Source: a virus (Duplodnaviria > Caudoviricetes). From it: a stretch of DNA of 64,000 nt. The notes beneath the pieces were generated by a model. That model ran no database searches, was not told the DNA's origin, and saw only the letters and a program-made list of their open reading frames with translations. The stretch lies in IMG/VR virus record IMGVR_UViG_2602041884_000001, positions 10,432-74,431 of that record; one strand, 5' to 3'. Within the stretch, counting starts at the first letter, position 1; every line of letters starts with the position of its first letter. Shown in pieces: positions 10,001-62,186 of the stretch. Made by a program: the position numbers and the translations under genes.

Positions 10001-13000
10001 CCGTTGGCGGTATGTCGATCAGTGCAGCTGCCGATACTTCATCGGTCGGCGGCGCGGTGTCCGAACTATCCGCAGCGGCCAATTCGACGGCAAGCAAGGG
10101 GGCAGCGATTGACGTTGCCGCGACCGCAGACGTTTCGGCGGACCCCGGCGACGTGGACTACGCAGCCGCCCAGGCCGCACTGACGGCGTTCATTACCGAG
10201 TCGACGGCCCAGTTGACAACCTTCAACGCGACAGTTACCGCCTCGATCAACGGGATGGTCCTCGGAATTACTGCAGGTTTCACTACTATGCAGACAAGTG
10301 CAACCGCAGCGTTCACCAACATGAACACCATTGCCGTTACTCAGTTTACGGCGATGCAGACAAATGTAGTTACAATCGTCAGCACTATGGTGACGACTGT
10401 TAATGGACAGCTGCAGCTGCTCATCACTTACGTCACGTCGTTCGGGCAGAGCTTCAATGCTGCCTGGAATGCGGCGTGGAAGGCATGGCAGGACACCACG
10501 ACGAGCGGGGTTAACAATACCCTGTCCGAGTGGGAGCGGATGGCGCTTGGCTTGAACAACACTCTCGAGAGCGGTATTCGCCCGGTCTTCGATGAGATGC
10601 AGGTCATGCTCCAGGAGCTCGAAGATGCCTACGCCCGAACTGTAGACAACGTTGGTGCAACCTGGGACGGCATTCGCGAGAAGACCGCAGCCCCGGCACG
10701 CTTTGTTATTAACGATGTCTACAACGACGGTATTCGTGGTGCCTGGAATAAGTTCAATAAGTTCCTCGACCTGGAGGAACTGCCTGAGCATACCGCAAGC
10801 TTTGCGTCCGGTGGTAGTGTTCATGGAAAGGGCACCGGAACCAGCGACTCGATCCGCGCGATGCTCTCGAATGGTGAGCACGTCATCACAGCTCGAGAGG
10901 TTCAGGCTGCCGGTGGTCACGCGGCTATCGAGAATCAGCGTCGCGCATGGCTCGCGGGTCGAAACGGCTCGATGCAGACTGGTGTTGAGGCATTCAAGAA
11001 CGGTGGCCGCGTTGGCACCGACGGCGACAATGGCCCAGGACTTGTCCAGGGTGGCAACATTCAGCTCGGTGACGTGTCTGCAGGTGGCATCACGACGCCG
11101 ATTCAGCAGGCTATGTGGGATGCAGTTCGTACCGCTTTCCCGCAGGTGACCCTGTTCTCTGCAACTCGCTACCAGGACGTCGGTTCAGGTTACGACTACC
11201 ACATGGCAGGCATGGCGCTTGACGTCAGCCCGTCGCCGGAGATCGCAAACTGGATTTACGCGATGAACAAGACCAACCCGGTCCTGGAGCTCATCCACTG
11301 GCCCCTGGCCGGATGGGAGAACCTCAAGAACGGTGCGCCACTCGATTACGGCGCTGCAACCAACGCTGGACACATGGACCACGTACACTGGGCCATGAAT
11401 ACGATGGTTGATAACGAGGGCAAGATCGTCTCGATGGGTCCGATGGGCGCTGGGATCAACCCTGTTAATTACAAGAAGCTCGTCGAAGATGGAATCAACT
11501 CCAGCCTCGATGCAGTTCTTGATCGTGATCCGAAGTTCGGCGGCGGCATCGGCGAGTGGGTTCCGAAGTCGATCGAGCTTGCTCGCAAGAGTATGCAAGA
11601 CAAGCTCGGACCCCTCGCCGAGAAGCATTCGACAATGTTCTCGGGCAGCAAGAACTCCGGACCCGGTGGCAATATTCCGTACGACTTTAGTGCGGGTGTT
11701 GAGCAGTGGCGCAAGCTGGCCACCGAGATGCTCATCAAGCAGGGCCAGTCTGCGACCTACGTCGACCGACTGCTTATGCAGATGAACTCGGAGTCCGGCG
11801 GCAACCCGAACGCTATTAACGACTGGGACATTAACTGGCAGAACGGAGTCCCCTCCAAGGGCCTCATGCAGGTTATTGATCCTACGTTCCAGAAGTGGCG
11901 CGATCCGAGCTTGCCTAATGACATCTGGGACCCGGCTGCGAACATCGCGGCCTCGATCCGCTACACGATGGGAGAGTACGGAACACTCGACGCCTGGAAC
12001 GGTACCGGCTACGACTCGGGCGGCGTTCTGCCCCCCGGCTTCACGCTGGCTCACAACCAGACGGGTGGACCCGAGGCTATCCTCACCAAGGCTCAGTGGA
12101 GTGCGATGTTCGACATCGCAAAGAACGGAAATCTCAAGCCGGAAGATGTTCAGGACGCTGTCACGAATGCCAACATCGCAACTGGCAACACTGCAGACAA
12201 GCAGGCGGATGCGATCATCAAGGGCATGGACGTGTGGCAGAAGGCCTGGACACCAGCCCTGTATGGTGCGGCAGACGAGTCGGTCAAGGCTTCGGACAAG
12301 GTGTCGAAGGCTGCGGATGGTTCCGCAAGTGCAACGGTTGCACTGAACAAGAGTCTCGGCGCATACAGCACGCAGATCACGGCACTGTCGAAGGCGCTCG
12401 TTGCGTTCTCGAACTCGGCACAGTCTTCGGTCAAGGTTACGGTCAACGTCAAGACTGGAGCAACGACAACCGAGGGCGGCAGCGGCAACGTTAAGAAGAA
12501 CGAGAAGGGCGAGACCGTCGTTACGGTCGAGCAGCCTACACTCGAGGCATGGGCACCTACGATCAACGCCTTCGCCGACCTCCTGGATGCACTGCCATAC
12601 GCTGATCGCAACTGGGATGCCGACAACCCTGTCGCTGGCGAGACCGAGCGCGAGCGCAAGATTCGTATCGCACAGAACAACATGACGAATTACACCAAGG
12701 GTGCCTACAATGTCCTGAAGGACATGGGACCTGTGGTTATGCGTCATACCGCTATCATCGGCACTGCAGCCGAGCGACTCCTGAAGGAGGACGGCCCAGC
12801 CTGGACTGCAGCGATGACGATGATTGCGACAGGTAACCCTGGTGGATACGCATTGGCAACCCTACTAGCTGTCAAGGCAGTTGCGACCTTGCTGCCCTTG
12901 GTTATTGCTGCTATCATGGATATCGTACCGGCGCTCATCAGGGCGATTGTTAGGTTCCTGACGCAGTTCATGCCAGACTCGGTGTTCGCTTACGCCGATA

Positions 13001-28216: not shown

Positions 28217-28410
28217 CTTGGCAACCTTCCCTGTTTCCGGAGACGCATGACCTCAAACAAACCTGCAATGTACCACCCGTTGCCCCTTGATCGCCACACG
28301 GCTCCACAGTAATCGCACGGTCCTAGAACCTTGTCGACACTTGCAGAGAGTGGAAAGAGCTTGGGCACGTCGGCACAGTGCTCGCAGTCAGAGGTCGGCA
28401 AAAGCGTCAT
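28204..28410 (-). CDS. hypothetical zinc-finger-like protein
   Basis: CEHC..CDYC; GGAGG RBS before ATG 28410. Confidence 0.6.
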   Translation of the reverse strand: MTLLPTSDCEHCADVPKLFPLSASVDKVLGPCDYCGAVWRSRGNGWYIAGLFEVMRLRKQGRLPRCRS

Positions 28411-29107
28411 GACTTTCCTCCTCCAGCGCACGAGCTGCGCGCTCGTACCGGACCTCGTCTAGCTCGATCGCAACGGCATTCCGGCCGCAAGACCTTGCCG
28501 CTCGAACGAGCGAGCCTGATCCGCCGAAGGGGTCAACAAGGAACGCACCCTCTTGCGTCGAGTGACGAATGAGTAGCTCCAGAAGTGCGCCCGGCTTCTC
28601 GTGCGGATGAATGAGCTTCTCTGGCCGGAGTTGGGGTACATGTAGTACACCGTTCCTCCGCTTCGCGTTTCGAGGCGCACGACCCTTCTTGAGAAAGATG
28701 ATGAACTCGTGCCCCTGGCCCCACGATTCCAGATCACCCATGCCTGGGCCATCCTTCTCCCAAACCAGGACTGCCTTGCGAACGAAGCCGTACTGAGCAC
28801 AGAAATCGTCGAGCATGACGAGCCAATCGCTGAGGACCTGGTATGCGGTGAAGACGTAGAGGTCGCAGTGCTCTTTGGTCTTGGGAAGCAAAGCCCCCAT
28901 AACCTCTTTGAACACCTTAATTGCAACCTCTGGAGACTCGTCATTGGCGATCTTTGTTGCATACTTCTTTCCGCCCTCAGTGACAGCCATGTTAGACAGG
29001 TTGTCCACCCCGAAGGGGGGGTCAGTGATAATGCAATCCACTGACCCCTCCTTGAAGCGCTGGCACAACTCTTCGGACTTGCCGTGCCAGATCTGATGGA
29101 TTTTCAC
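28388..29107 (-). CDS. DNA methyltransferase (N6-A/N4-C, beta class)
   Basis: TDPPF catalytic motif precedes HPHEKP and the DPFGGSGS SAM-binding motif. Confidence 0.9.
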   Translation of the reverse strand: MKIHQIWHGKSEELCQRFKEGSVDCIITDPPFGVDNLSNMAVTEGGKKYATKIANDESPEVAIKVFKEVMGALLPKTKEHCDLYVFTAYQVLSDWLVMLDDFCAQYGFVRKAVLVWEKDGPGMGDLESWGQGHEFIIFLKKGRAPRNAKRRNGVLHVPQLRPEKLIHPHEKPGALLELLIRHSTQEGAFLVDPFGGSGSLVRAARSCGRNAVAIELDEVRYERAARALEEESHDAFADL

Positions 29108-53631: not shown

Positions 53632-54570
53632 TCAGGCCTTGGCTGCACCCTTAACCTGCTCGTCCGAGTAGCCGGGGATGATGCCCTCGATGGTGCAGTT
53701 CGCCGCGTCACCCTTGGGGAACAGACGGGCCGAGATCGCACCCGAGCTCGGGTGGTCGTCACCGTACTCTTCCGAGGTGTGATTGACGATCTGCGACACG
53801 GTCAGGAACTCGCCGGGCGCGAGGCCCTCGAACGCCGACGTGATGTGCGCTGCGACGTCACGCCGGGTGCCGGTGTAGCTCGAGCGGGTGCCGGTGGCTG
53901 CACGGGTGCCGCGCTTGCCGAGACCCTTGCCGTTGAACAGCTTGACGGCTGCGGTTGCCAGACCGTCGAGTTCCGGGGCCTCGCCCTTGTCCTCGTCGTC
54001 CGACTCCTGCCAGTCGAGGTACGCCCGTGCCTGGTCGAACGCGCTGGTCGTCGAGGGGACCTCGAAGCCTTCCACCTCTTCGGTGGCACGCTCCTCGAGG
54101 AGCTCCTTGGCCAGTTCCAGGGCTGCGACACGCTCGCCGTACGCGATCTTCGGGTCGACCTTCGGCGCTGCAGGCTTCGGCTCGGCCTTGGTCACGATCA
54201 GCTTGTCGCTGATCTCGTTGAACGCGACGGCCTTCTGGTACTCGCGACCGTCGAGGGCAGCCTTCATGCCGTCCTGGACGTAGTTCTTGGCGAGGTTCTT
54301 GTACTTGATCCCGCCGTTCACGGCCCGGTACGCCTGGCTGATCGCGTCGAGGTCAGCCTCGCTCACGGTGCCGGTGCTGGGGTCCGAGGCCTCCACGGCG
54401 TTTTCCACGACCTGCTTGAATGACTCGACTGCGGGCATGTGCTCCGCGTCCTTGGCGGCCTGCTCGTCGGACTTGTCCGCCACGGGCTCGGCGGGTGCCT
54501 GTGCCTCTTCGGTGACGAAGCTCTCGTCGGTCACGTCGTCGGTCTGGTCGAAGATGTCGGTACGGCTCAT
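53632..54570 (-). CDS. abundant hypothetical protein (acidic, possible C-terminal DNA-binding domain)
   Basis: ACAGGAGG RBS before ATG 54570; extreme codon bias; own promoter. Confidence 0.8.
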   Translation of the reverse strand: MSRTDIFDQTDDVTDESFVTEEAQAPAEPVADKSDEQAAKDAEHMPAVESFKQVVENAVEASDPSTGTVSEADLDAISQAYRAVNGGIKYKNLAKNYVQDGMKAALDGREYQKAVAFNEISDKLIVTKAEPKPAAPKVDPKIAYGERVAALELAKELLEERATEEVEGFEVPSTTSAFDQARAYLDWQESDDEDKGEAPELDGLATAAVKLFNGKGLGKRGTRAATGTRSSYTGTRRDVAAHITSAFEGLAPGEFLTVSQIVNHTSEEYGDDHPSSGAISARLFPKGDAANCTIEGIIPGYSDEQVKGAAKA

Positions 54571-54639
54571 GATGTCTACCTCCTGTGTAGGGTGACCGAT
54601 CGTCACTTTTGTGTCGATCGGGGTAATGCGTTTTGGTGC

Positions 54640-54687
54640 TGCATTCGTTCGTAAACTAACTATAACTCGGCCCACGAACGAATGCAA
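54640..54687 (-). promoter_or_regulatory. promoter TTGCAT-17-TATAGT within a 13-bp inverted repeat
   Basis: TGCATTCGTTCGT / ACGAACGAATGCA arms. Confidence 0.75.
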
Positions 54688-54694
54688 CCCGGTA

Positions 54695-54976
54695 CTAGCT
54701 CGTTGTGATGTAGATCACAACGTCGTTTTCCTGCCACCATTCGGTGCCGAGTTTTAGCTCCGCACCTAGCACGGTCCACAAAAACCTCGTAGAACGGTGG
54801 GTGTTCGACAATCGGACGATCGCCCGACCCCAGTGAAGTGCTTCTGTTAGGTTAGGCTTTCTGATCGTATCGATCAGCCTACCGTTCTTCCACACCTTGA
54901 TTGTGTAGGGCACCTCGCGGTCCCACGTCGCCACTAGGTGACTAGGCACCTGCGGACACGGCTGGAGTTCCGTCAC
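54695..54976 (-). CDS. hypothetical protein
   Basis: 4-bp overlap. Confidence 0.6.
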   Translation of the reverse strand: MTELQPCPQVPSHLVATWDREVPYTIKVWKNGRLIDTIRKPNLTEALHWGRAIVRLSNTHRSTRFLWTVLGAELKLGTEWWQENDVVIYITTS

Positions 54977-55071
54977 GGCTTGCGCCGTTCGCGCCAGTCG
55001 TTCACGTAGACTCCCACGATGTAGAGAACCACGTAGCCGACCAGGGCGAGGAACAGGTGAAGTCCGTTCAC
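54973..55071 (-). CDS. small membrane protein (32 aa)
   Basis: GTG at 55071; one TM segment; overlaps on both sides. Confidence 0.6.
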   Translation of the reverse strand: MNGLHLFLALVGYVVLYIVGVYVNDWRERRKP

Positions 55072-55337
55072 AGTCCCACGCTCCAGAACCAACACGTACC
55101 GTTCGTGCGAGTCGCGTCGGCGTACCACGCGGTGCCGTCCGAGTATGCGATCAGTTCCGCGCCGAACGGCGACACGTAGGGCGACTCGTCCTCGTGCATG
55201 AAACGAGTCCCGTCGTTGTCGATCTGCGCACCCACGCACGGAAGTGCGACGGTGTGCGATGATGCCTGGGCCGGTGCCGCCACGGGCGCGACCACGAGGG
55301 CTGCGCACGCGACGACCACGCTAGCGAGTTTCTTCAC
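55068..55337 (-). CDS. secreted protein
   Basis: MKK + hydrophobic core + AQA signal peptide. Confidence 0.75.
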   Translation of the reverse strand: MKKLASVVVACAALVVAPVAAPAQASSHTVALPCVGAQIDNDGTRFMHEDESPYVSPFGAELIAYSDGTAWYADATRTNGTCWFWSVGL

Positions 55338-55492
55338 TTGCGCACCTCGTTGGCGAACACGAATCCCACGATCGGGGCGAGGCTGGTGGACATCATGCGA
55401 TCGACCTCACGACGCTCGGAGGCGGACAGGCGGCGACCACGCTTGATCTGGTTGTTCACGCGGGTGCTGTTGCGCTTGATGGTCTTGGACAT
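55334..55492 (-). CDS. small basic protein
   Basis: AAGGGAG RBS before ATG 55492. Confidence 0.65.
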   Translation of the reverse strand: MSKTIKRNSTRVNNQIKRGRRLSASERREVDRMMSTSLAPIVGFVFANEVRK

Positions 55493-55584
55493 TGGAACTC
55501 CCTTGTTAAAGGTGTTGGTTGAGTCGGGCGACTCCCTATGTACACCTACCACGTGGGTAGATGTACATAGAATAACGTCCGAGT

Positions 55585-55749
55585 CTAGTCGTTGGTGAAC
55601 GTGAATACGATACCGGGCGTGCCACACTGGGCGCACTTGCCCTTGTTCCACGTCCACGGGGCGTCGGAGTCCATGTCCGGTTCGTCGCCGTACTTCTTCT
55701 CGAAGTCGACCGAACACATGGGCACGTGCTTGTCAAGTGTGATGGTCAT
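55585..55749 (-). CDS. small hypothetical protein (54 aa; not in ORF track)
   Basis: GGAGG RBS; MTITLDKHVPMC..CAQC. Confidence 0.65.
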   Translation of the reverse strand: MTITLDKHVPMCSVDFEKKYGDEPDMDSDAPWTWNKGKCAQCGTPGIVFTFTND

Positions 55750-56045
55750 GCCTCCACCTGCATCCCGGTCGTCATGACGATCAGGCGCATGAGGCCTTCC
55801 ACGCGTGCGAGGTTTTCGGGTGTGGTGTTGAGGGGCGTGATGCCGAGTTCCATGAGGTATTCCGTCGCCACGTCGGCGAGGTCGTCCTCGAAGTTCGATG
55901 CCACGTTCGGTGTGGGCGAGTCCGCGTAGTGGGACTTCAGACCCTCGGTCACGTCCGCCACGATCTTGTAGACGTCGTGGTCGATCTCGGTCGCCCGGGT
56001 CTGCCCGAGCATGGCCGTGGACACATGGACAATGCTTGCGTTCAT
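55746..56045 (-). CDS. hypothetical protein
   Basis: AGGGAG RBS. Confidence 0.75.
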   Translation of the reverse strand: MNASIVHVSTAMLGQTRATEIDHDVYKIVADVTEGLKSHYADSPTPNVASNFEDDLADVATEYLMELGITPLNTTPENLARVEGLMRLIVMTTGMQVEA

Positions 56046-56086
56046 TTGAGTCTCCCTAGTTAAAGGTGGATTGGAACTTTCTGCTC

Positions 56087-56128
56087 CGTTGGTAGTACTA
56101 GTGTATCACGCTAGTACTACCAACGCAA
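56087..56128 (-). promoter_or_regulatory. promoter TTGCGT-17-TACACT within a 15-bp inverted repeat
   Basis: CGTTGGTAGTACTAG / CTAGTACTACCAACG. Confidence 0.75.
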
Positions 56129-56163
56129 CACTGGATTTATGTGATCCAGGTTCACGTCGAACT

Positions 56164-56637
56164 TTAGGCGGCGAGTTGTACCACGGCCGCCCGGTAGCGT
56201 TCGGGAACTTCCGTTAGGATGAACCGAACCGGGTTGATCTGGTTACGCGCCCGATCGTACCACGTGCGCACGTCCGCGTCAAACTTGGTGTTACGCTCGT
56301 TTTCGGACATTGTGCGGGTGGACGTACCACGACGCTTTTTGACGGGCGCGACGGGGCGCTCGTTTTCGTGCCCGAAGAATGCGATCTCGGACTCGACACG
56401 TTGTGCGGGTGTGGCATCCCACGACAAATCGTCGGGGTGCACAACCCTGCCCACTGGTACCGTGGACTTGATCGACTTGATACCACGTTCGGTATCCCTC
56501 GCGTTCAACTCGTACGGCAACGGTCCAAGATTGGCCGATTGTGCCGTTTTTCCGGTGACCATTCCGGGCGTACGGGCGGTCACGCGAGTTTCGCGCATGA
56601 TGCCGTAGCCGTGTCCCACGAGGTTGTGTTCCATCAC
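56164..56637 (-). CDS. early hypothetical protein
   Basis: GAAAGGG RBS; own promoter. Confidence 0.7.
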   Translation of the reverse strand: MMEHNLVGHGYGIMRETRVTARTPGMVTGKTAQSANLGPLPYELNARDTERGIKSIKSTVPVGRVVHPDDLSWDATPAQRVESEIAFFGHENERPVAPVKKRRGTSTRTMSENERNTKFDADVRTWYDRARNQINPVRFILTEVPERYRAAVVQLAA

Positions 56638-56681
56638 GCTACCCTTTCGGTGTAGTAGGTTGTTCGTTCGTTGTTAGTACT

Positions 56682-56711
56682 AGTCTAACATGAACTAGTC
56701 GGTTGTTGCAA
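56682..56711 (-). promoter_or_regulatory. promoter TTGCAA-18-TAGACT
   Basis: TG extension; followed by AGTAC like its neighbours. Confidence 0.7.
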
Positions 56712-56739
56712 CCGGCTAGATCAAATTAGGTTAGGACTT

Positions 56740-57057
56740 TTAGACCATGTGCCGTGATGCGTAGTCGTCCGCCCACGCGGCGAAGTTTTCGTGGTCCATC
56801 GTGCCGATGAAAGTTTCCACGGTCGTATGCGACGGACTACCCATGATGTAGGCGTGGACACGCCCACGGAACTCGTTGTATCGCACGGCTACGCCGGTGG
56901 CCGAGTCGTTGTGCCACACCATGACACGGGTCGTGTTGTTGAACATGAACTCGTCGCGCAAGATTTCACGCAACGTGTCACGTTCGTCGGTGGGCAATTC
57001 GCGGATAGCGTGTTCCACGATAGCGTCCCGAAACTTTTCCATATCGGCGTACGACAT
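56740..57057 (-). CDS. early hypothetical protein
   Basis: AGGTG RBS; own promoter. Confidence 0.7.
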   Translation of the reverse strand: MSYADMEKFRDAIVEHAIRELPTDERDTLREILRDEFMFNNTTRVMVWHNDSATGVAVRYNEFRGRVHAYIMGSPSHTTVETFIGTMDHENFAAWADDYASRHMV

Positions 57058-57096
57058 GGTGCACCTACTTTCGTAGTGTTGTTGTTGTGTGGTACT

Positions 57097-57125
57097 AGTG
57101 TATCACATAGCGAACCTAGACGCTA
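57097..57125 (-). promoter_or_regulatory. promoter TAGCGT-17-TACACT
   Basis: GTGATACACTAGTAC is identical to the 56.1-kb promoter. Confidence 0.65.
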
Positions 57126-57157
57126 GTTCTAGGGCCACTAAATGCACGCTAGTGGTA

Positions 57158-57397
57158 CTAGGTGTTGCGGACGTTGATCGACATAGCGCCGTTCATGTCG
57201 TTGTCGAATAGGAACAACCGACGACCATAGATCACGTCGGTACGTGCCGGTGCCAATTCGTAGGCGTTCTCGTTGGTGAACGACACCACGTAGGCGTAGG
57301 CGTCACGGTAGGACTCGAACCGCCCCGCAACCCAATCGCGCCCACCCACCGAACGTTCAAAGTCGTCCACGTGCCGGATTACTACGTAGTGTGCCAT
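57158..57397 (-). CDS. early hypothetical protein
   Basis: AGGA RBS. Confidence 0.65.
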   Translation of the reverse strand: MAHYVVIRHVDDFERSVGGRDWVAGRFESYRDAYAYVVSFTNENAYELAPARTDVIYGRRLFLFDNDMNGAMSINVRNT

Positions 57398-57517
57398 GGT
57401 ACTAGATCCTATCCCATCACGTTAGTGATGTAGTGGTGCACCCACGGGTTGTGGGTACTAGTGCACGGTTAACCTATGACGGTTGTAGGGCTAAACCCTA
57501 CCGCGCGTTGTGGTACT

Positions 57518-57546
57518 AGTCTAACACGTAGCTAGTACTAGTGCAA
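57518..57546 (-). promoter_or_regulatory. promoter TTGCAC-17-TAGACT
   Basis: TGTTAGACTAGTAC is identical to the 56.7-kb promoter. Confidence 0.7.
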
Positions 57547-57547
57547 C

Positions 57548-58000
57548 CTATCGGGCGTGCGCACCCGCGCCGGTCCGGCGTGCGCGTGTAGCGGGTCGCG
57601 TGCCGCGCATCACGCGACGGTCGTTCATCGCGCGCATGCGGTCCGACGTTGCACGGGCACGTAGTACCACATCCATGCGCGCGATGTAGGCGACGGTTGC
57701 AACGGTCACATCGTAATCGATCGACCATGTATCGATGCAATCGACGCACACCGTTTCGGTGTGGTGGCACGTGGTACTAGCGGCCATTGGGACATCCGCG
57801 TTCACGCCGTCGATGGTCATGGGTGCCGTGGTACTAGCACCATCCGCCCATGACCAACCACCGTTGCGGTATGCGGTCGATCCCGGGCAATGGTGGTCAC
57901 CATCGTGACCCGCGTCGAGAAGACAGTCCACCCCCATGTTTGCGCGAGTCGGATGGGGCGCGCGGCATCGCGCGGGTCGGGAAACTTCGTTTTTGTTCAT
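57548..58000 (-). CDS. early hypothetical Cys/His-rich protein, probably leaderless
   Basis: ATG is 6 nt downstream of the -10; C..C.L..GH.G.H and C.H..CxxC motifs. Confidence 0.65.
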   Translation of the reverse strand: MNKNEVSRPARCRAPHPTRANMGVDCLLDAGHDGDHHCPGSTAYRNGGWSWADGASTTAPMTIDGVNADVPMAASTTCHHTETVCVDCIDTWSIDYDVTVATVAYIARMDVVLRARATSDRMRAMNDRRVMRGTRPATRARRTGAGAHAR

Positions 58001-58006
58001 AACTAC

Positions 58007-58035
58007 AATCTACATGGTGGTACTAGTCATGTCTA
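58007..58035 (-). promoter_or_regulatory. promoter TAGACA-17-TAGATT
   Basis: Spacing predicts a transcription start at or next to ATG 58000. Confidence 0.6.
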
Positions 58036-59004
58036 GTCCAAACGCGAAATAACTCGTGTGATCTATTTAACAGTCGTGACGACTTGGCAAATAGACCCGC
58101 GCGTGATAATGCAAATCTTTCGTTCGATGGTCATCGAACTTGTTTTGTGGACTCGAAATGTGGACCGGCGTCGTGGCATCCATCTTTTGCGATTACACCC
58201 CGCTGGTTGCAACGCTGGCGGGCGGAATGGGGGCCGCCGGTACTATGTAGCCGATTGGGGACTCGTGCCGCGTACGGGCCATATGGCGGCCAGCAATTGG
58301 GGCTTGACATTGGGAGCAAAGTTTGATCTACCCGGCGGGTCGGAGAAAGCTCTCTGCTTAGTTTGCGGTAACCAAAAAAATATTCTGAGATCATAGGTAG
58401 TACCACACAGGCAATGTAGGAAAGAATGACCAGTTAATGGTGCAATGGTGTTAATTGTGCCTACCAGGATCGTGGGAATAAGATGGAAATTAGTAAGTAC
58501 GAACGTATGTTCTAATTTTACGATTGCCTACGGTTGTTTTGGATTCTCAGCCCGTCTACCTGCAGGAATAGGAATATGTAAATAATAATAACTATATATA
58601 GATATACACCTACCTTGTTACTCGTCAGGTCTGGGGTACCCGTAGCTAGTACCACACCCACAGGCTTGCTTCTTACTACATCTTCACCCATCTATACCGG
58701 ACCCCCCGGTTTTGGTTCTACGGTTATCGAAAAACACCCCGTGACCTGCGAACTAAACCGAAATCGGGGGTGTTTTTATAGTGCGGTTTACGGTTACACC
58801 TTTTTACGTTCACTGACTTTCCCCATGACCGAACGCCCACCCGCTGGCCGGAATCGTACATGTGTTCTAATCCGAAAACGTGGAGCCGTCTCGGGCCGAA
58901 GTAAACTATAATAACTGTAAGTAGATGTTTACGGTTTACTTCCGACAAAGAGGAAACACCCGCCGACCCCTGGAGGGAAGGCGGGTGTTCGATCGATGTT
59001 CGAT
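58036..59004. other. ~1-kb non-coding region (candidate genome terminus or origin)
   Basis: No convincing ORF; AT-rich core near 58567-58606; inverted repeats near 58731-58777 and 58955-58989. Confidence 0.55.
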
Positions 59005-59238
59005 TTACAGGAGGCCTTGTTCTTGCATCTTGTTGTAGAGCTCGTTCGACTGGATTGTGAGCTCTTCTACCTCGGCCCCGAGTGTCAAAGTCTCGACGTA
59101 CTTGAGCTCGAGCTTCGTGATCGTCGCGACGTACTCCTTCACGACATCAGGCATCCGCTCGAGCTTCTCCGGAGGGAACGTATTTCGGACCCTCTTTAGA
59201 CTGTCGAGTATCTGGATCGTACTGTAGGTGTCCGTCAT
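59005..59238 (-). CDS. hypothetical protein
   Basis: Last gene of the operon; followed by a hairpin. Confidence 0.65.
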   Translation of the reverse strand: MTDTYSTIQILDSLKRVRNTFPPEKLERMPDVVKEYVATITKLELKYVETLTLGAEVEELTIQSNELYNKMQEQGLL

Positions 59239-59239
59239 C

Positions 59240-59689
59240 TCATCGACCCGGTAGGATCAGTGTCGATCCAGTCTGCTTGAGCACCTTCGGATACGTCAAC
59301 CCCTTGCCGCTGAAGATTCGCTCCATCGAGGTAGCCCGGTCCGCGTCGTCCCCCAGTACGTGCCCCAAGATTGAGCCCAGCGCCGAGGTCGCTCCAGCCA
59401 CTTCGCTCAGCGCGATCGCCAAGCCTGAGCGCTCCTTGGGGTCGGTGGACAGCCGGAGCTTCACATTGAGCTTCTCGTAGAGCGCGCCGTGGTAAGCTGC
59501 GCCGTTCTCGATCAGCTGCATCAGCGACTTGATTGCTTCTGCCGACATCTCCGCGTCGACCGTGACACTCGGCGCTCGCAGAATCTGTGCGGCTCGATCC
59601 AGATTGGCCGCGTCTTCAGCGTCGCCATTCTCGATCATCTCCGCGACCGCGCTGACCAGGTAGTCGAGTGCTTCTTCTTTGGTTTTCAT
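59240..59689 (-). CDS. hypothetical protein
   Basis: 4-bp overlap. Confidence 0.7.
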   Translation of the reverse strand: MKTKEEALDYLVSAVAEMIENGDAEDAANLDRAAQILRAPSVTVDAEMSAEAIKSLMQLIENGAAYHGALYEKLNVKLRLSTDPKERSGLAIALSEVAGATSALGSILGHVLGDDADRATSMERIFSGKGLTYPKVLKQTGSTLILPGR

Positions 59690-59946
59690 GCAACCTTATC
59701 CTTCTTCTTGAGTGATTCCTTGTGCTCGGCAAGTCGCTGACTGAGGTACATATCCTCGATCGGCGTCCTGGAGGCCGTCCCTGGTAGGCGCACTCGGTCT
59801 CGGTTTGACTTCGTGCACAGTGGCCCCTTGCAGCCCTTGTTGTATCCGCTTGGCCTGCCGTGTAGGTGTGACGGGATTGTCTGGTCTTCGAGCTCGGCGT
59901 CGACCCGAGCCACAAGGTCGGCCAGAAGCTTCTCGATTTCGTTCAC
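59686..59946 (-). CDS. hypothetical protein (HG..GY..GCK...C motif)
   Basis: AGGAG RBS; motif common in actinophage small proteins. Confidence 0.7.
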   Translation of the reverse strand: MNEIEKLLADLVARVDAELEDQTIPSHLHGRPSGYNKGCKGPLCTKSNRDRVRLPGTASRTPIEDMYLSQRLAEHKESLKKKDKVA

Positions 59947-62186
59947 TTGCTTCTCCTGTTCTTGTTGCCTGCGTCGGACACCAGCTCGAGCTGTCGTCCG
60001 TCTAGACTTTCTACGTGAATGTATCTTGCCTTCTTTGGGCCGCGAGCGGCTTGCCTGGGGTCTAGCATGAGTATCCCTCTATCGACAAGCATCTCGATGC
60101 GCTTGTGCACCTCTGCCGGGTCCCAGCCCATCTTGCTTGGCTTGACGTGATTGTTGATCTTTCCGATGGTTGCGTACCCGTCGCGCCCTGTGTAGTACTT
60201 GACTGCATGAATGATCTTGTCTTCCATCTGTCCGCCGAAGGTCTTGGTGACCTTCTCGCCGGATAGTGTAGTTGACCTGTTGAGGTACTCCATCAGCCAC
60301 ATTGCGGACCTGATGTCTTCCTCCATGACAACATCGGCCTTGCGGTTGATCGCAAACAAGGTCGCTAGCTTGAACAGCTTGAGGTCGAAGCGCGACTTGA
60401 TATCCTCATCGTGCTTCCACTTCTCTACCTGCTCGTATGACTTCTGCATGAGCGGGCGCGCCGATCGGTCGACATCGATGTAATGAAGGCGGCGAACGCG
60501 CTTGCTCTCCGGGTCAACCTTGTTGGAGTAGTACACTGCAACATCTGTATACAGTTCCTGGGCATGGGTCATGTCTTTCATCTTGTTGTCGAAGATGTCG
60601 TTCGAGATAACCTTGTTGCCCGTGACCACCTCAAAGCGCGCAAGGAGGCCGTTACTGATGTTACCCCTGCCGATAAGCGAAGGAAGCGCCCCCGGCTGCA
60701 CGCCAGCACTAAAGACAAGATTCGGATTCACTGCGACCACCGTGCCACCGGCACGGGAGCCTGCTCGAAGGGCGGCGTCCAGGGCGGGACTGTTGTCCAT
60801 TTCCTGGAAGATTCCGACCAGCGAGCTACCCGTGACCGCGCCCTTGCCCATGAACCGTGAAAGCTCGTCGACCTCGAGGTCGGCCATCACGTCCGCGACA
60901 GTGTAAGGCTTCCCCTCGTCGATCTCCTGGCTGAGCTCCTGAAGAAGAAACTCGCCCGATCCCGGCTCGATAAGAGACTTGATCCCGGTGTGGTTGCCGA
61001 ACCTGTTGCCGTTGCCGGGAGACGGGTTCCACTTGTACACGATGTGATCGAGAATCGCGTTCATGGCATGCCTGGACTGAGACTTACCAGCTCCCGATGC
61101 GCCGACAAACAGGACCGACAAGGTCGTCTTGAACGCGCCGCCGACCCTGCCGCGCACATAAGGCCCGGCAGAGAGCGAAAGAAGCTGCAAGCCACGAAAG
61201 AGGCTGAACTCCTTGGGGATACTCATCTCTTCAACAGCTCGCATGAACTCGTAAAGAGGGGTGCCTTCAGGTATGTGGTCGAAGATGCCGTCAATCTCCG
61301 GCAGCAGCTCGTCAACCCCGAGCTCGCTGTCGTCATCGTCTTTTGGGGAATCAACCAAACTCAGCGCCGGAGGCGCTGCTGTCGTAGTGCTGGCTGGCTT
61401 CGCCTCTGCCTGGACGGGCTCACTCTTCTTTACGGGCTGCTGAATCTGCTGCTCGGGTTCGGCCTGTCCAAACTCTTTGCGGCTGAACTTGGTTGGTCCG
61501 ATAGACGGAAGGTCTTCGTCCCCGGGGAGCATCTGGATTCCGAGAGGATTTTCCGGCTTGTCTTCCTTGATCTCGGGAAGTGGGCCATACTCGGCCTCGA
61601 ACTGTGCGACTTCCTCTTTCTGCTTAGCTGGCGACACGCCAACATAGCCGCCCTTGGTCTTGTCGAACCTCCAGCCACAAAAGTCCTCGAGGGTCTTCTG
61701 CTTGGCCTGAGCGTACTCCTTGCCCTTGAGCTGCTTGCCGAACGGCATGCCGTTAGCTGCAGCGACCATGTCGATCACGCCGCCGCCCTCTTCGCACTGT
61801 CCGTAGCAAACCCATGTGTTCTTCTCGGTGTTAAGGCATGCGGCCTCCGAGTTCTTGTTCACATGGCCAGCCGTGGGACAGAACACGAGCTTCTCGTTCT
61901 GTCCGCCGGATAGCTTCACATCGTTGCCGGTAAGCTTCTTGTAGACGGCAACGATGTTCAGCTTCTTGAGTGCGACGTCCTCCTCGGCCTGCTCTTCAGC
62001 CTTCCGTGCGGCGTAGTTGTCCTCGTCGTGAACGACCGGCGCGGCCTCGAGGAACTGCTCGGGAACCTCGATGTTCTCGATGTTCTCAACATCTTTTGCA
62101 TCCTGCGACTTCTTGTCGCCCTCTGCAATAGTCTTGTTGATTTCGGCGAACATCTGATCCCAGCGACCGCCACCGTTGACACTCAT
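59943..62186 (-). CDS. primase-type zinc finger fused to a P-loop helicase-like domain
   Basis: CP...H......C...C..GG.VID zinc-binding domain; GASGAGKS; VDE; GLLARF (DUF3987-like). Confidence 0.75.
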   Translation of the reverse strand: MSVNGGGRWDQMFAEINKTIAEGDKKSQDAKDVENIENIEVPEQFLEAAPVVHDEDNYAARKAEEQAEEDVALKKLNIVAVYKKLTGNDVKLSGGQNEKLVFCPTAGHVNKNSEAACLNTEKNTWVCYGQCEEGGGVIDMVAAANGMPFGKQLKGKEYAQAKQKTLEDFCGWRFDKTKGGYVGVSPAKQKEEVAQFEAEYGPLPEIKEDKPENPLGIQMLPGDEDLPSIGPTKFSRKEFGQAEPEQQIQQPVKKSEPVQAEAKPASTTTAAPPALSLVDSPKDDDDSELGVDELLPEIDGIFDHIPEGTPLYEFMRAVEEMSIPKEFSLFRGLQLLSLSAGPYVRGRVGGAFKTTLSVLFVGASGAGKSQSRHAMNAILDHIVYKWNPSPGNGNRFGNHTGIKSLIEPGSGEFLLQELSQEIDEGKPYTVADVMADLEVDELSRFMGKGAVTGSSLVGIFQEMDNSPALDAALRAGSRAGGTVVAVNPNLVFSAGVQPGALPSLIGRGNISNGLLARFEVVTGNKVISNDIFDNKMKDMTHAQELYTDVAVYYSNKVDPESKRVRRLHYIDVDRSARPLMQKSYEQVEKWKHDEDIKSRFDLKLFKLATLFAINRKADVVMEEDIRSAMWLMEYLNRSTTLSGEKVTKTFGGQMEDKIIHAVKYYTGRDGYATIGKINNHVKPSKMGWDPAEVHKRIEMLVDRGILMLDPRQAARGPKKARYIHVESLDGRQLELVSDAGNKNRRSK

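Follow-up and report, generated by a model that had tools for sequence, protein, structure and literature searches.

The question of a word-free early segment

Why are CAG and CTG missing from almost 1.5 kb of early DNA in a phage genome where both trinucleotides are common? The genome belongs to a lytic Gordonia phage of Cluster CS1 (GTE7/GMA7-type), and the analyzed stretch of 64,000 nucleotides (the window) contains 1126 CAG and 1230 CTG. None of these sites, on either strand, falls within the 1467 bp between positions 56457 and 57923 (the void), which is flanked by a last CTG at 56454 and a next CAG at 57924. At the density of the remaining window, 55.2 CAG/CTG (CWG) sites would be expected there. 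The biggest CWG gap in the window measured 1470 bp and the second 234 bp, the latter being also the runner-up genome-wide (74.4 kb). For the whole genome (74,431 bp, 2767 CWG) the product of gap and density was 54.6, compared with ln(n) = 7.9 for a random spread, and in 100 third-order Markov genomes the biggest CWG gap averaged 214 bp with a maximum of 339 bp. A Poisson estimate for the void, with all starts counted, was about 6e-21. Chance is excluded as the cause. A preliminary description of this DNA had given the same limits, had put the expectation at about 50 from base composition and had called both trinucleotides common in the rest of the window; the computed counts reproduce its coordinates exactly and show a significant depletion, stronger than first stated.

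Depletion of AG/CT words on both strands

The actual rule is wider than CAG/CTG: AG/CT persists in the void nearly only as TAG/CTA, which makes up 73 of the 95 AG/CT occurrences and is itself enriched about four-fold (73 versus 18.5 expected). GAG/CTC was found 10 times (62.2 expected), AAG/CTT 12 times (48.6 expected), and AGC/GCT 16 times (52.7 expected), all 16 of the latter as TAGC. The scarcity of GAG/CTC and AAG/CTT and the predominance of TAG/CTA had already been noted by eye, and the counts bear out both. CTAG occurred 16 times versus 1.6 expected, AAC/GTT was enriched (67 versus 42.5), and gains were also seen in ACG, CAC, GTA, and ACC. TT and CC steps were unchanged and the rigid AC/GT step was the most enriched, on which grounds avoidance of UV dimers and DNA bendability were dropped as explanations. 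For each of CAG/CTG, GAG/CTC, AAG/CTT, AGG/CCT, AGC/GCT, and AGA/TCT, the longest gap in the genome lies at the void. VAG/CTB, with a genome density of 112 per kb (about one per 9 bp), is absent from 557 bp at 57360-57917, and its largest gap beyond the early region is 75 bp.

The two strands are depleted equally. Sense-strand counts in the void were 0 for both CAG and CTG, 6 GAG and 4 CTC, and 6 AAG and 6 CTT, and coding frames, off-frames, and intergenic DNA were all purged alike; the depletion operates at the level of double-stranded DNA. It fades across about 3.5 kb from the void start. On the sense strand of the graded zone (Table 1), CAG and CTG occur at 10.8 and 6.5 per kb, compared with 18.8 and 16.7 in other leftward genes, and the remaining AG/CT trinucleotides are also about halved. 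A search of 54000-60000 for tandem repeats and low complexity returned just two tiny arrays.

Cost to codons and amino acids

A comparison of 372 void codons with 12,560 reference codons revealed a marked shift in the encoded proteins. Gln made up 0.3% of the void codons (3.6% in the reference), Lys 1.1% (4.7%), and Leu 3.5% (8.2%), and Arg rose from 5.7% to 10.2%. Synonymous usage moved as well: the CTG share of Leu went from 26% in the reference ORFs to 0%, the GAG share of Glu from 77% to 28%, and the AGC share of Ser from 18% to 0%. The same proteins recoded with normal codon usage contained on average 26.4 CWG, with a minimum of 14 in 300 trials, versus 1 observed. These figures agree with the preliminary remarks that CTG is almost unused for Leu and that the proteins at 56740, 57158, and 57548 lack Gln (0 in each).

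Genome end, early promoters, and an oriented motif

The records of the relatives HayZem, Austin, and Amore2 stop at window position ~58354, where the segment equivalent to the HayZem terminal repeat also finishes (Table 1), and the physical right end probably lies at about this position. Measured from this putative end, the void spans 431-1897 bp, and the terminal ~430 bp contain 6 CWG. Its right edge falls at the first early promoter, which lies about 0.3-0.4 kb inward of the terminal-repeat end, and not at the physical end; in close relatives, the right void edge likewise lies just upstream of P1. The void adjoins an AT-rich non-coding stretch (46-49% GC), and genes over ~32 kb from the void side all point away from the right end. 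The earlier view of an early block bordering a genome end, with individually promoted genes, is thus consistent with a leftward-transcribed segment whose direct-terminal-repeat end is placed by comparison with HayZem, and with the presence of the genes' own promoter-like elements.

Table 1. Coordinates of the features discussed in the text (window positions).
Feature	Position	Strand	Remarks
Beta-class N6-adenine DNA methyltransferase	28391..29107	-	PF01555; outside void region
Graded zone	54600..56456	.	Partial AG/CT depletion, both strands
Array of oriented 8-mer CTAGTACC	54691..58026	-	9 copies on minus strand
ORF E	55746..56045	-	99 aa; pI 4.3; within graded zone
Promoter-like element upstream of ORF E	56100..56128	-	TTGCGT-17-TACACT
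ORF D	56164..56634	-	156 aa; pI 9.8; void ends within
Promoter-like element upstream of ORF D	56682..56711	-	TTGCAA-18-TAGACT
ORF C	56740..57057	-	105 aa; pI 5.2; no Gln
Promoter-like repeat upstream of ORF C	57091..57125	-	…GTGATACACTAGTACCAC
ORF B	57158..57397	-	79 aa; no Gln, no Lys
Core without AG/CT except TAG/CTA	57363..57916	.	29 TAG/CTA, 0 VAG/CTB
Promoter-like element upstream of ORF B	57518..57546	-	TTGCAC-17-TAGACT, then AGTACCAC
ORF A	57548..58000	-	150 aa; no Gln; doubtful gene; two motif copies inside
First early promoter P1	58007..58035	-	TAGACA-17-TAGATT; CTAGTACCAC motif within spacer
Terminal-repeat equivalent	58176..58354	.	Matches exact 179-bp direct terminal repeat of HayZem

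The same region carries an oriented motif. The 8-mer CTAGTACC occurs 10 times in the window versus 0.72 expected, and nine of these copies lie on one strand inside 3.4 kb, with minus-strand starts at 54691, 57091, 57154, 57398, 57454, 57512, 57773, 57830, and 58019. Seven-mer variants (CTAGTAC without the following C) are found as GTACTAG on the plus strand at 56095, 56677, and 57535. Copies follow -10 elements, sit in a promoter spacer, span a start codon and a stop codon, and lie within ORF A. The motif is kept in HayZem, Hotorobo, and two IMG/VR relatives (L050 and L075).

The void in related phages

At the equivalent place, a void was present in 9 of 12 related genomes or loci, so that the bias extends to relatives of this phage. 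All five CS1 genomes had voids of 593-1470 bp at the same position, and the more distant CS2 and CS3 phages and the two IMG/VR relatives had voids of 325-753 bp. The DNA of the void is mostly non-homologous between relatives, with about 360 bp aligning to close relatives by blastn. Gene order differs as well (A, B, C, D, E here versus gp104, D, B, C, E in HayZem), and the early genes common to this phage and HayZem are only 31-58% identical. The same gap being kept in relatives that have different genes there points to strong selection against a very short motif, and the void appears to be kept by selection, not by shared ancestry. In Hotorobo, ~1.2 kb of CWG-bearing DNA separates the end from the void, and the equivalent AT-rich stretch contains iteron-like repeats.

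The CS4 phages Katyusha and ASerpRocky, together with ReqiDocB7, have no CWG void (normalized gaps 6.7-10.1), and Katyusha plates on the same host as void phages, Gordonia terrae 3612. All nine void genomes or loci have 1-10 copies of CTAGTACC within 2 kb of the void. Of the three void-less genomes, two had no copy and ReqiDocB7 had one of its five copies near its largest gap; the co-located, oriented array is missing from all three.

The IMG/VR relatives came from an 8-mer scan in which 120 loci were fetched and 4 compared by tblastx, 2 of them proving to be relatives. Most of the other top-ranked loci had a low GC content and contained the 8-mer many times, which suggests that they are repetitive. 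In public sequencing runs, relatives were detected as partial contigs only, in wastewater metagenomes and one isolate-like run, and none of these runs spans the whole stretch. No mention of the bias was found in the literature retrieved under GTE7/GMA7 and the genus names, which included genome announcements, PMC4524720, and PMC5559632.

The early ORFs

ORF D is the sole early gene common to CS1, CS2, and CS3. Searches for its family turned up few members (2 and 9), and its AlphaFold model (pLDDT 69.5, with three confident C-terminal helices) had no Foldseek match in the PDB with E <= 0.001. ORF B is 35% identical to HayZem gp102 and GMA7 gp89, both of which are likewise CWG-free. ORF C is 31-34% identical to HayZem gp101 and GMA7 gp88, which are more distant from the end and contain 7 and 3 CWG, respectively; gene C here has 0 CWG at 1.3-1.6 kb from the end, compared with the 7 of HayZem at 1.8-2.1 kb. 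No homologues of ORF C were found in the protein collection or in IMG/VR, and its single-sequence model was of low confidence (pLDDT 60.5). The GC content of ORF A is flat across codon positions (0.64/0.60/0.68), so it may not be a gene, and a non-coding leader may occupy this place instead.

Searches of ORFs A-E against Pfam gave no match above the curated cut-off, and those against PHROG matched only families of unknown function; ORFs A and D had no match in NCBIfam, and the ESM Atlas returned only unnamed clusters, below 0.9, for the early ORFs. No nuclease or anti-defence fold was recognized among them by Pfam or PHROG, or in the fold search with ORF D. As to the proposal that these small genes are candidate anti-defence factors, the Pfam, NCBIfam, PHROG, fold, and ESM Atlas searches assigned no such function to any of them.

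The phage adenine methyltransferase

The phage encodes an adenine methyltransferase (Table 1) that is conserved, with 80 of 259 matching phage records at least 80% identical. Its nearest match in the PDB is 5HEK/5HFJ (full length, E 4e-15), that is, M1.HpyAVI, a promiscuous enzyme that methylates GAGG, GGAG, and GAAG (PMC5173035). M1.HpyAVI is its closest solved relative, and length and motif order match; identity, as read off the alignment, is only about 28-30%, so that the specificity is not transferable. These RAG-type words are nearly missing from the void, where GAGG, GGAG, and GAAG occur 2, 0, and 2 times versus 16.0, 14.2, and 19.9 expected, and it is plausible that targets of the AG type are contested among these phages. 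On the other hand, CAG/CTG, the most fully missing word of the void, is not a target of M1.HpyAVI, and homologues of the phage enzyme also occur in void-less phages. Presence of the methyltransferase was accordingly rejected as a predictor, given that a homologue occurs without a void in Katyusha, ASerpRocky, and ReqiDocB7.

Avoidance of a DNA-acting factor and its rivals

We tentatively favor, with confidence that stops short of the halfway mark, continuing purifying selection that purges from the immediate-early unit a 2-3-nt double-stranded DNA motif that would be targeted early in infection. This explanation starts from the directly observed void, with its strand symmetry, position, conservation across diverged sequence, and codon and amino-acid cost, from which we infer avoidance of a DNA-acting factor as the driver. 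The avoided motif would be AG/CT in all contexts but TAG/CTA, with CAG/CTG purged absolutely, and the protected unit would run leftward from the first early promoter for ~1.5 kb, the effect fading by ~3.5 kb. Most likely, the DNA read in the first moments of infection would thereby be made immune to a DNA-targeting activity, one that may cut, mark, or block, reads 2-3 bases, and would be active before later phage functions. In a rough split within this explanation, a host defence receives the most weight as the factor, slightly ahead of a host-shutoff effector made early by the phage, and a link to the phage's own adenine methyltransferase receives less again. Against the explanation, we know of no nuclease, methylase, defence, or host-shutoff system with VAG/CWG specificity in Actinobacteria.

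Some observations run contrary to the favored view. What anchors the void is the first promoter and not the physical end of the DNA, and a cutting host enzyme should meet sites in the terminal DNA, given the 6 CWG here and the site-bearing lead-in of Hotorobo. A simple model in which the first DNA to enter is site-free does not fit, since the void starts at the promoter and Hotorobo has this lead-in. The idea of first-entering DNA put forward in the preliminary description thus finds partial support: a terminal early segment is free of the word, but the void does not start at the DNA end. The enrichment of TAG/CTA is not predicted by simple avoidance, void-less Katyusha shares the host G. terrae 3612, and the searches of the early genes showed no anti-defence or nuclease fold.

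A rather unlikely alternative is that the void results from, or is required by, a regulatory DNA array built from the oriented operator or promoter motif (A)CTAGTACC(AC). A protein binding the CTAG motif, possibly spreading or roadblocking like stoperators, might need an AG/CT-poor background; alternatively, the bound protein might keep the phage methyltransferase off this region late in infection, with unprotected sites selected away, a form that would explain why the methyltransferase alone fails to predict the void. Void and motif co-occur perfectly across the 12 genomes or loci, the over-representation and one-strandedness of the 8-mer are those given above, its contexts (spacer, start and stop codons, ORF A) suit an operator over a plain promoter element, and the void begins where the first promoter bears the motif, not at the DNA end. 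Against this, ORF D, the sole shared early protein, has no recognizable fold. In HayZem, HTH proteins (gp60 and gp65) are annotated in other parts of the genome. In addition, the graded zone reaches ~2 kb past the dense part of the array, and we know of no operator array in which the coding DNA between motifs is purged of a dinucleotide over 1.5 kb at a cost in amino-acid usage.

It is improbable that the void is a desert of primase start sites, removed on both strands beside a possible AT-rich origin and preventing priming inside a heavily transcribed early unit. DnaG-type primases are the only enzyme class we found with a CTN recognition unit on either strand: they use the template 5'-CTN-3', most primers begin with pppAG, and the cryptic third base is determined by residues of the zinc-binding domain, with d(CTG) used in gamma-proteobacteria and d(CTA)/d(TTA) in Firmicutes (PMC2978363). 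The void pattern, in which CTG is 0, CTC and CTT are very low, and CTA is abundant, has this CTN form; the phage encodes primase-like proteins, one with a zinc-finger-like N-terminus, and the adjoining AT-rich non-coding stretch has the iteron-bearing counterpart in Hotorobo. However, the data presented in PMC2978363 cover no actinobacterial primase, E. coli-type enzymes also use CTA (PMC2978363), which is enriched here, a priming desert has no established benefit, and CTG/CAG sites are present both in the terminal 430 bp and in the AT-rich region.

A mutational artefact without selection, in which methylated CWG is deaminated, early-exposed DNA is damaged, or another local, context-specific process acts, is very improbable. 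The TAG/CTA excess (+54.5) approximates the CWG deficit (-55.2), as C-to-T changes at CAG would give, but the companion product CAA/TTG is outside the 10 most enriched trinucleotide pairs, at 18.4 and 12.3 per kb versus 22.0 and 7.6 in the reference. As CAA/TTG is not enriched, CWG deamination was rejected. Moreover, GAG and AAG are also depleted, the gains in ACG, CAC, GTA, and ACC need transversions, the proteins retain open frames and homologues despite the shift in composition, and the void occupies the same position in lineages with different genes there.

Avoidance at the RNA level is disfavored and scarcely credible. Early mRNAs would evade a ribonuclease motif (a MazF-like toxin or a host-shutoff RNase) or certain codons and tRNAs, in keeping with the coincidence of the void with the early transcription unit and with the avoidance of in-frame CAG, CTG, AAG, and GAG. 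Trinucleotides and their reverse complements are, however, equally depleted on the sense strand, off-frame and intergenic DNA is purged to the same degree, and the stretch that is purged most completely (57363-57916) may not be coding. An Rfam search of 54000-60000 gave no match below E = 0.3, and the minus-strand RNA fold of 57540-58010 was not better than shuffles (z = -1.19).

Least probable of all is depletion of CRISPR PAMs in an interference-vulnerable segment. In its favor, PAMs are the best-known 2-3-nt defence motifs, read in double-stranded DNA on either strand, and T5 is CRISPR-sensitive only in its first-step-transfer region (bioRxiv 10.1101/866236). Against it, the type I-E GTT (bioRxiv 10.1101/2020.04.21.053553), the sole Gordonia PAM that we found in print and for which PAM avoidance was rejected, is enriched in the void as AAC/GTT, and the remaining genome would still be fully targetable.

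Implications of the favored explanation

Returning to avoidance of a DNA-acting factor, the signal implies a DNA-reading activity of 2-3-nt specificity that acts at the very start of infection. A more specific and doubtful version takes the void as the negative image of an enzyme reading 2-3 bases of double-stranded DNA (VAG/CTB, most strictly CAG/CTG). This enzyme might be a promiscuous, RAG-type phage adenine methyltransferase paired with a methyl-dependent or methyl-sensitive opponent, or else a phage effector of the immediate-early phase whose marking, blocking, or cutting would affect host DNA genome-wide. Cluster CS phages would then carry an "unmarkable" immediate-early cassette, bounded by the oriented CTAGTACCAC operator array, which would remain readable while all other DNA in the cell is hit. 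If true, local sequence vocabulary would serve to tell self from non-self, which would be a new principle, and Actinobacteria or their phages would possess an undescribed DNA-targeting activity with an ultra-short motif. The CS phages plate on G. terrae 3612, are engineerable, and naturally differ in the presence of the void. Local k-mer voids at early promoters also offer a computable signature for immediate-early or anti-defence cassettes in other phages.

Comparison with known systems

Local site avoidance in the first-expressed DNA of phages is known for single 6-bp restriction sites. A di- and trinucleotide purge over 1.5 kb of mostly coding DNA is a far stronger signal, and here its position is conserved while genes are swapped, and Gln is removed from the encoded proteins. 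The leading end of T7 has strong host-RNAP promoters, ocr as its first gene, and transcription-driven genome entry. Our phage is similar in its host-type promoter cluster near the end, genes pointing away from that end, and tiny early genes, but differs in that no Ocr-like or anti-restriction fold was found among its early ORFs; T7, to our knowledge, has no dinucleotide-level void.

Stoperators consist of an asymmetric motif of ~10-13 bp, present in many copies in one orientation to transcription, at promoters and in genes; as far as we know, they are not tied to a compositional void. The motif array described here is alike in being asymmetric, repeated, over-represented, and co-oriented with transcription, at promoters as well as inside genes. 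It differs in that this phage is lytic with no repressor annotated, and in that the motif is confined to ~3.4 kb. Stoperators of Cluster A mycobacteriophages are mentioned in PMC5559632.

Genome-wide restriction-site avoidance and PAM depletion resemble the void in that short, defence-related words are selected against strand-symmetrically. Here, by contrast, the depletion is local and complete and the motif far shorter than restriction sites, and GTT, the published Gordonia PAM that we found, is not avoided. DnaG primase shares a 5'-CTN-3' unit with a discriminating third base on either strand, as presented in PMC2978363.

The proposed purpose of the void follows the logic of T5, whose first-step-transfer DNA lacks EcoRI sites. 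That region is the only part of T5 on which EcoRI and CRISPR take effect, natural T5 escapes them there, and a pre-early nuclease has been proposed to degrade host DNA at sites missing from it (bioRxiv 10.1101/866236). By analogy, the locus described here may be likened to T5 as a terminal first-expressed segment with small genes that locally lacks a target common elsewhere, the remaining genome being protected in other ways, and a genome-common word is indeed missing from its terminal early segment (0 versus 55.2). The site-free zone does not start at the DNA end, given the terminal CWG sites and the ~1.2 kb of Hotorobo; the void starts at the first promoter, and two-step entry is a T5 feature. 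Finally, T5 lacks the 6-bp site of one enzyme over ~10 kb, whereas in this phage a 2-3-nt motif is missing over ~1.5 kb, with codons and amino acids reshaped.

A segment of the early region without CAG or CTG

The CTG at 56454 is followed by no further CAG or CTG (together CWG) until the CAG at 57924, whereas about 55.2 would be expected in these 1467 bp, so that the absence noticed by eye in the preliminary description was confirmed by counting. The window contains 2356 CAG/CTG sites, and the gap they leave here (1470 bp) is followed at a distance by the second widest (234 bp). For the whole genome, a single contig of 74,431 bp in which the window spans bases 10432-74431, the product of CWG gap and density was 54.6 versus about 7.9 if sites were randomly spread, and in 100 third-order Markov genomes the maximal gap averaged 214 bp and reached at most 339 bp. 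Counts also bore out the scarcity of GAG/CTC (10 versus 62.2 expected) and AAG/CTT (12 versus 48.6) and the retention of TAG/CTA that had been described for this segment, hereafter the void. Specifically, 95 AG/CT dinucleotides were found versus 184.6 expected, 73 of them as TAG/CTA, which is itself enriched (18.5 expected), as are CTAG (16 versus 1.6 expected), ACG/CGT, CAC/GTG and GTA/TAC. AGC is present solely as TAGC, and from 57360 to 57917 AG/CT is absent except as TAG/CTA. Genome-wide, AG/CT words other than TAG/CTA (VAG/CTB) occur once per 9 bp, with a largest gap outside the early region of 75 bp, and for each of the six trinucleotide pairs that contain AG the longest gap in the genome falls at the void. 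The rule behind the void is broader than CAG/CTG and concerns AG/CT outside TAG/CTA.

On the sense (minus) strand of the void, CAG and CTG are both absent and GAG, CTC, AAG and CTT occur 6, 4, 6 and 6 times, respectively; the adjoining stretch (54600-56456) is likewise depleted on both strands. Within the void, depletion was equal in coding frames, off-frames and intergenic DNA. This equality, together with the strand symmetry, points to an action on double-stranded DNA rather than on mRNA or codons. The encoded proteins were analyzed by comparing 372 void codons with 12,560 codons from 26 long ORFs that served as reference (a rough selection by length and GC3). Gln (0.3% versus 3.6%), Lys (1.1% versus 4.7%) and Leu (3.5% versus 8.2%) were less frequent in the void, and Arg (10.2% versus 5.7%) and His (4.3% versus 1.7%) more so. 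Among synonymous codons, CTG for Leu went from 26% in the reference to 0%, GAG for Glu from 77% to 28% and AGC for Ser from 18% to 0%. When the void proteins were re-encoded with reference codon usage (300 trials), the mean was 26.4 CWG and the minimum 14, compared to one observed, which is a boundary site.

Features of the early region and the methyltransferase gene (window coordinates)
Feature	Position	Strand	Basis or remark
Void	56457-57923		CAG/CTG-free, 1467 bp
P1, predicted first early promoter	58007-58035	-	Consensus scan
ORF A	57548-58000	-	150 aa
Piece aligned to relatives	56177-56310		blastn; just left of void
Piece aligned to relatives	56579-56690		blastn; inside void
Piece aligned to relatives	57436-57547		blastn; inside void
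Adenine methyltransferase, beta-class	28391-29107	-	PF01555, E 8.9e-22

Genome layout and related phages

Nucleotide searches with the window retrieved the Gordonia phages GMA7, HayZem, Austin and Amore2 (genus Getseptimavirus). According to Table 1 of PMC5559632, GTE7 and GMA7 belong to subcluster CS1, Hotorobo and Monty to CS2 and Woes to CS3, where direct terminal repeats (DTRs) measure 191 and 184 bp, and Katyusha, Benczkowski14 and Demosthenes to CS4, with DTRs of 1,172-1,182 bp. Genome announcements characterise phages of this group as lytic siphoviruses whose tails are very long. The HayZem annotation places genes 1-9 leftward, genes 10-41 (terminase, structural, lysis) rightward and genes 42-104 leftward, starting from the right end. 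Since the records of HayZem, Austin and Amore2 stop at window position ~58354, and HayZem has an exact DTR of 179 bp with both of its ends aligning to 58176-58354, homology suggests a physical right end of the window phage at ~58354. The void would then lie 431-1897 bp from this end.

One metagenome contig from a wild relative (run X7) breaks off at window ~58340-58354, where the HayZem record ends, and continues with letters that we take to be library adapter; this stop weakly suggests that a real DNA end lies here. Across the predicted genome ends, positions 58250-59000 are AT-rich (46-49% GC) and non-coding. The equivalent stretch of Hotorobo (locus L007, ~9950-10130) carries about five tandem copies of a ~30 bp unit resembling the iterons of a replication origin. 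The GMA7 tail, with a length of 474 nm given in PMC4524720, has room for ~1.4 kb of B-form DNA, nearly the void length of 1.0-1.5 kb, which may be a coincidence.

Conservation of the void over exchanged genes

The preliminary description had proposed looking for the bias in the orthologous region of relatives, where it was indeed found. A void occupies the same place in each of the five CS1 genomes (1470, 1008, 1020, 1026 and 593 (+227) bp) and contains a VAG/CTB-free core of 443-581 bp. Voids were also detected in more distant relatives, namely Hotorobo (500 + 398 bp), Woes (325 bp) and two IMG/VR contigs found by way of the motif described below (L050, 753 bp; L075, 517 bp), with normalised gaps of 12-24. 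No void was observed in Katyusha, ASerpRocky (both CS4) and ReqiDocB7 (normalised gaps 6.7-10.1), and the last kilobase of Katyusha showed a weaker depletion of GAG/AAG-type words. Overall, 9 of the 12 genomes or loci compared have a void.

Only three short pieces of the early region align to relatives by blastn. The leftward early ORFs, named A to E from the right end, follow the order A, B, C, D, E in the window phage and gp104, D, B, C, E in HayZem, and those shared are partly identical in sequence (B 35%, C 31-34%, D 56-58%, E 40%). ORF B is CWG-free in both lineages. ORF C has no CWG in the window phage, where it lies 1.3-1.6 kb from the end. Its homologues, at 1.8-2.1 kb from the end, have 7 (HayZem) and 3 (GMA7). 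These comparisons indicate that being CWG-free goes with location rather than with the genes themselves.

Each early gene resembles a cassette placed downstream of a copy of the same promoter repeat, and the order of these genes is permuted among close relatives (56000-58000 versus HayZem locus L002 7100-8900). This suggests that cassettes have been shuffled via recombination between promoter repeats.

Predicted early promoters, an oriented motif and the early ORFs

The pattern TTGC-N18-20-TA(G/C)ACT occurs four times in the window (0.34 expected), three times upstream of ORFs B, D and E, and a repeat family ties these promoter-like elements to another one upstream of ORF C. An oriented 8-mer, CTAGTACC, usually present as ACTAGTACCAC, has ten copies (0.72 expected), nine on the minus strand at 54691-58026 and one on the plus strand at 58646. 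The minus-strand copies are located after -10 elements, in the P1 spacer, at the start and stop codons of B and twice within ORF A. Read on the plus strand as GTGGTACTAG, the 10-mer points to the right end, and it is conserved in CS1, CS2 and CS3 phages (e.g., HayZem L002 8400-8960, Hotorobo L007 9340-10530). A cluster of CTAGTACC adjoins the void in all nine void-bearing genomes or loci. Among the void-less genomes it is absent from two of three, the exception being ReqiDocB7 with five scattered copies and no cluster. In CS4 phages, which lack it, the 1,172-bp terminal repeat contains another repeat centred on CTAG, CTAGGGTTCTAGC with variants (Katyusha locus L009 10700-11100), and is depleted in GAG/AAG-type words. 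From its contexts, ACTAGTACCAC looks like an operator or roadblock site, or possibly like a Chi-like end-protection signal.

GC by codon position is flat in ORF A (0.64/0.60/0.68), unlike ORFs B-E (GC2 0.39-0.48, GC3 0.71-0.86). ORF A also scored low on the Atlas recognition measure and, for these two reasons, may be a non-coding leader rather than a gene. Its two motif copies are in frame, each translated Ala-Ser-Thr-Thr, and the matching place in HayZem is a 318-bp intergenic motif array. Searches of Pfam, PHROG and the ESM Atlas, and of NCBIfam for A and D, gave no recognisable function for ORFs A-E. ORF D, from a small family, is the only early gene common to CS1, CS2 and CS3. Its C-terminal unit of three helices is modelled confidently and its N-terminal half, which bears a conserved MxHNxxGxGYGIMRxVRVT motif, with low confidence; Foldseek gave no fold match for the model in the PDB. 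ORFs C and E encode acidic products (pI 5.2 and 4.3), which is compatible with DNA mimicry but is not evidence for it. To regard the early genes as candidate anti-defence factors is a reasonable guess, nothing more.

Proposed selection on the immediate-early unit

The terminal ~430 bp of the window phage contain six CWG, the right edge of the void lies just upstream of P1 in close relatives, and in Hotorobo the void is set back from the end by ~1.2 kb of ordinary DNA. These positions tie the void to the first promoter that bears the motif rather than to the end of the DNA. Of the original proposal, the picture of an early segment near the end holds, and so does its maintenance by selection, as voids recur at the same place over exchanged genes, but a simple model in which the first DNA to enter carries no sites does not fit. 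A host enzyme simply cutting the first DNA in should also select against CWG in the terminal stretch. The depletion fades over ~3.5 kb, which fits a need that falls off in time, or with distance into the early transcription unit.

We tentatively favour, as the most credible of the readings considered, selection that would keep the immediate-early unit safe from a DNA-acting factor recognising 2-3 nt. Foremost among the alternatives, and unlikely in our view, is that the void reflects an operator array, including a variant in which an array-bound protein would shield it from the phage's methyltransferase. We give distinctly less weight to a desert of primase sites, although DnaG-type primases, which recognise 5'-CTN-3' (PMC2978363), are the one enzyme class found with such a recognition unit. 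Mutation bias is suggested by the matching TAG excess, but enrichment of CAA/TTG is lacking and the gains are mostly of the transversion type, which makes this reading highly improbable. Avoidance at the RNA level is contradicted by the strand symmetry and fares slightly worse still. Least probable of all is depletion of a CRISPR PAM, as the published Gordonia type I-E PAM is GTT (bioRxiv 10.1101/2020.04.21.053553), which is enriched in the void rather than avoided.

If immunity of the immediate-early unit is what has been selected, three agents may be envisaged. The first would be host defence, with a precedent in EcoRI and CRISPR for T5, as treated in bioRxiv 10.1101/866236; two observations count against it, namely that the void is anchored at P1 and that CS4 phages of the same host have none. 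The second would be a phage effector made early, which would mark, block or cut host DNA at a time when only the early unit must be read, similar to what Davison proposed for T5 A1 (bioRxiv 10.1101/866236). Such a candidate effector accords with anchoring at the promoter and with a void specific to certain lineages, but profile searches recognised no nuclease or effector among the early ORFs.

The third would involve the phage's own conserved beta-class adenine methyltransferase; of 259 phage records matching it, 80 are at least 80% identical. Identity is 85-87% across CS2, CS3 and Tsukamurella phages, versus typically 35-70% for other proteins, and the enzyme is therefore unusually conserved. 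Its nearest solved relative (5HEK/5HFJ; E 4e-15; residues 5-228 on 3-229) is the promiscuous M1.HpyAVI, with targets GAGG, GGAG and GAAG given in PMC5173035. These words occur 2, 0 and 2 times in the void, versus 16.0, 14.2 and 19.9 expected. However, since identity to M1.HpyAVI is low and homologues are also present in void-less phages, the possible link to the void is a lead only.

In the literature searched on these phages, no account of this bias was found. The void would be a case of local target avoidance in first-expressed phage DNA, which is a known phenomenon. What sets it apart from known cases is the shortness of the motif, the completeness of the avoidance and the conservation of its position over exchanged genes.
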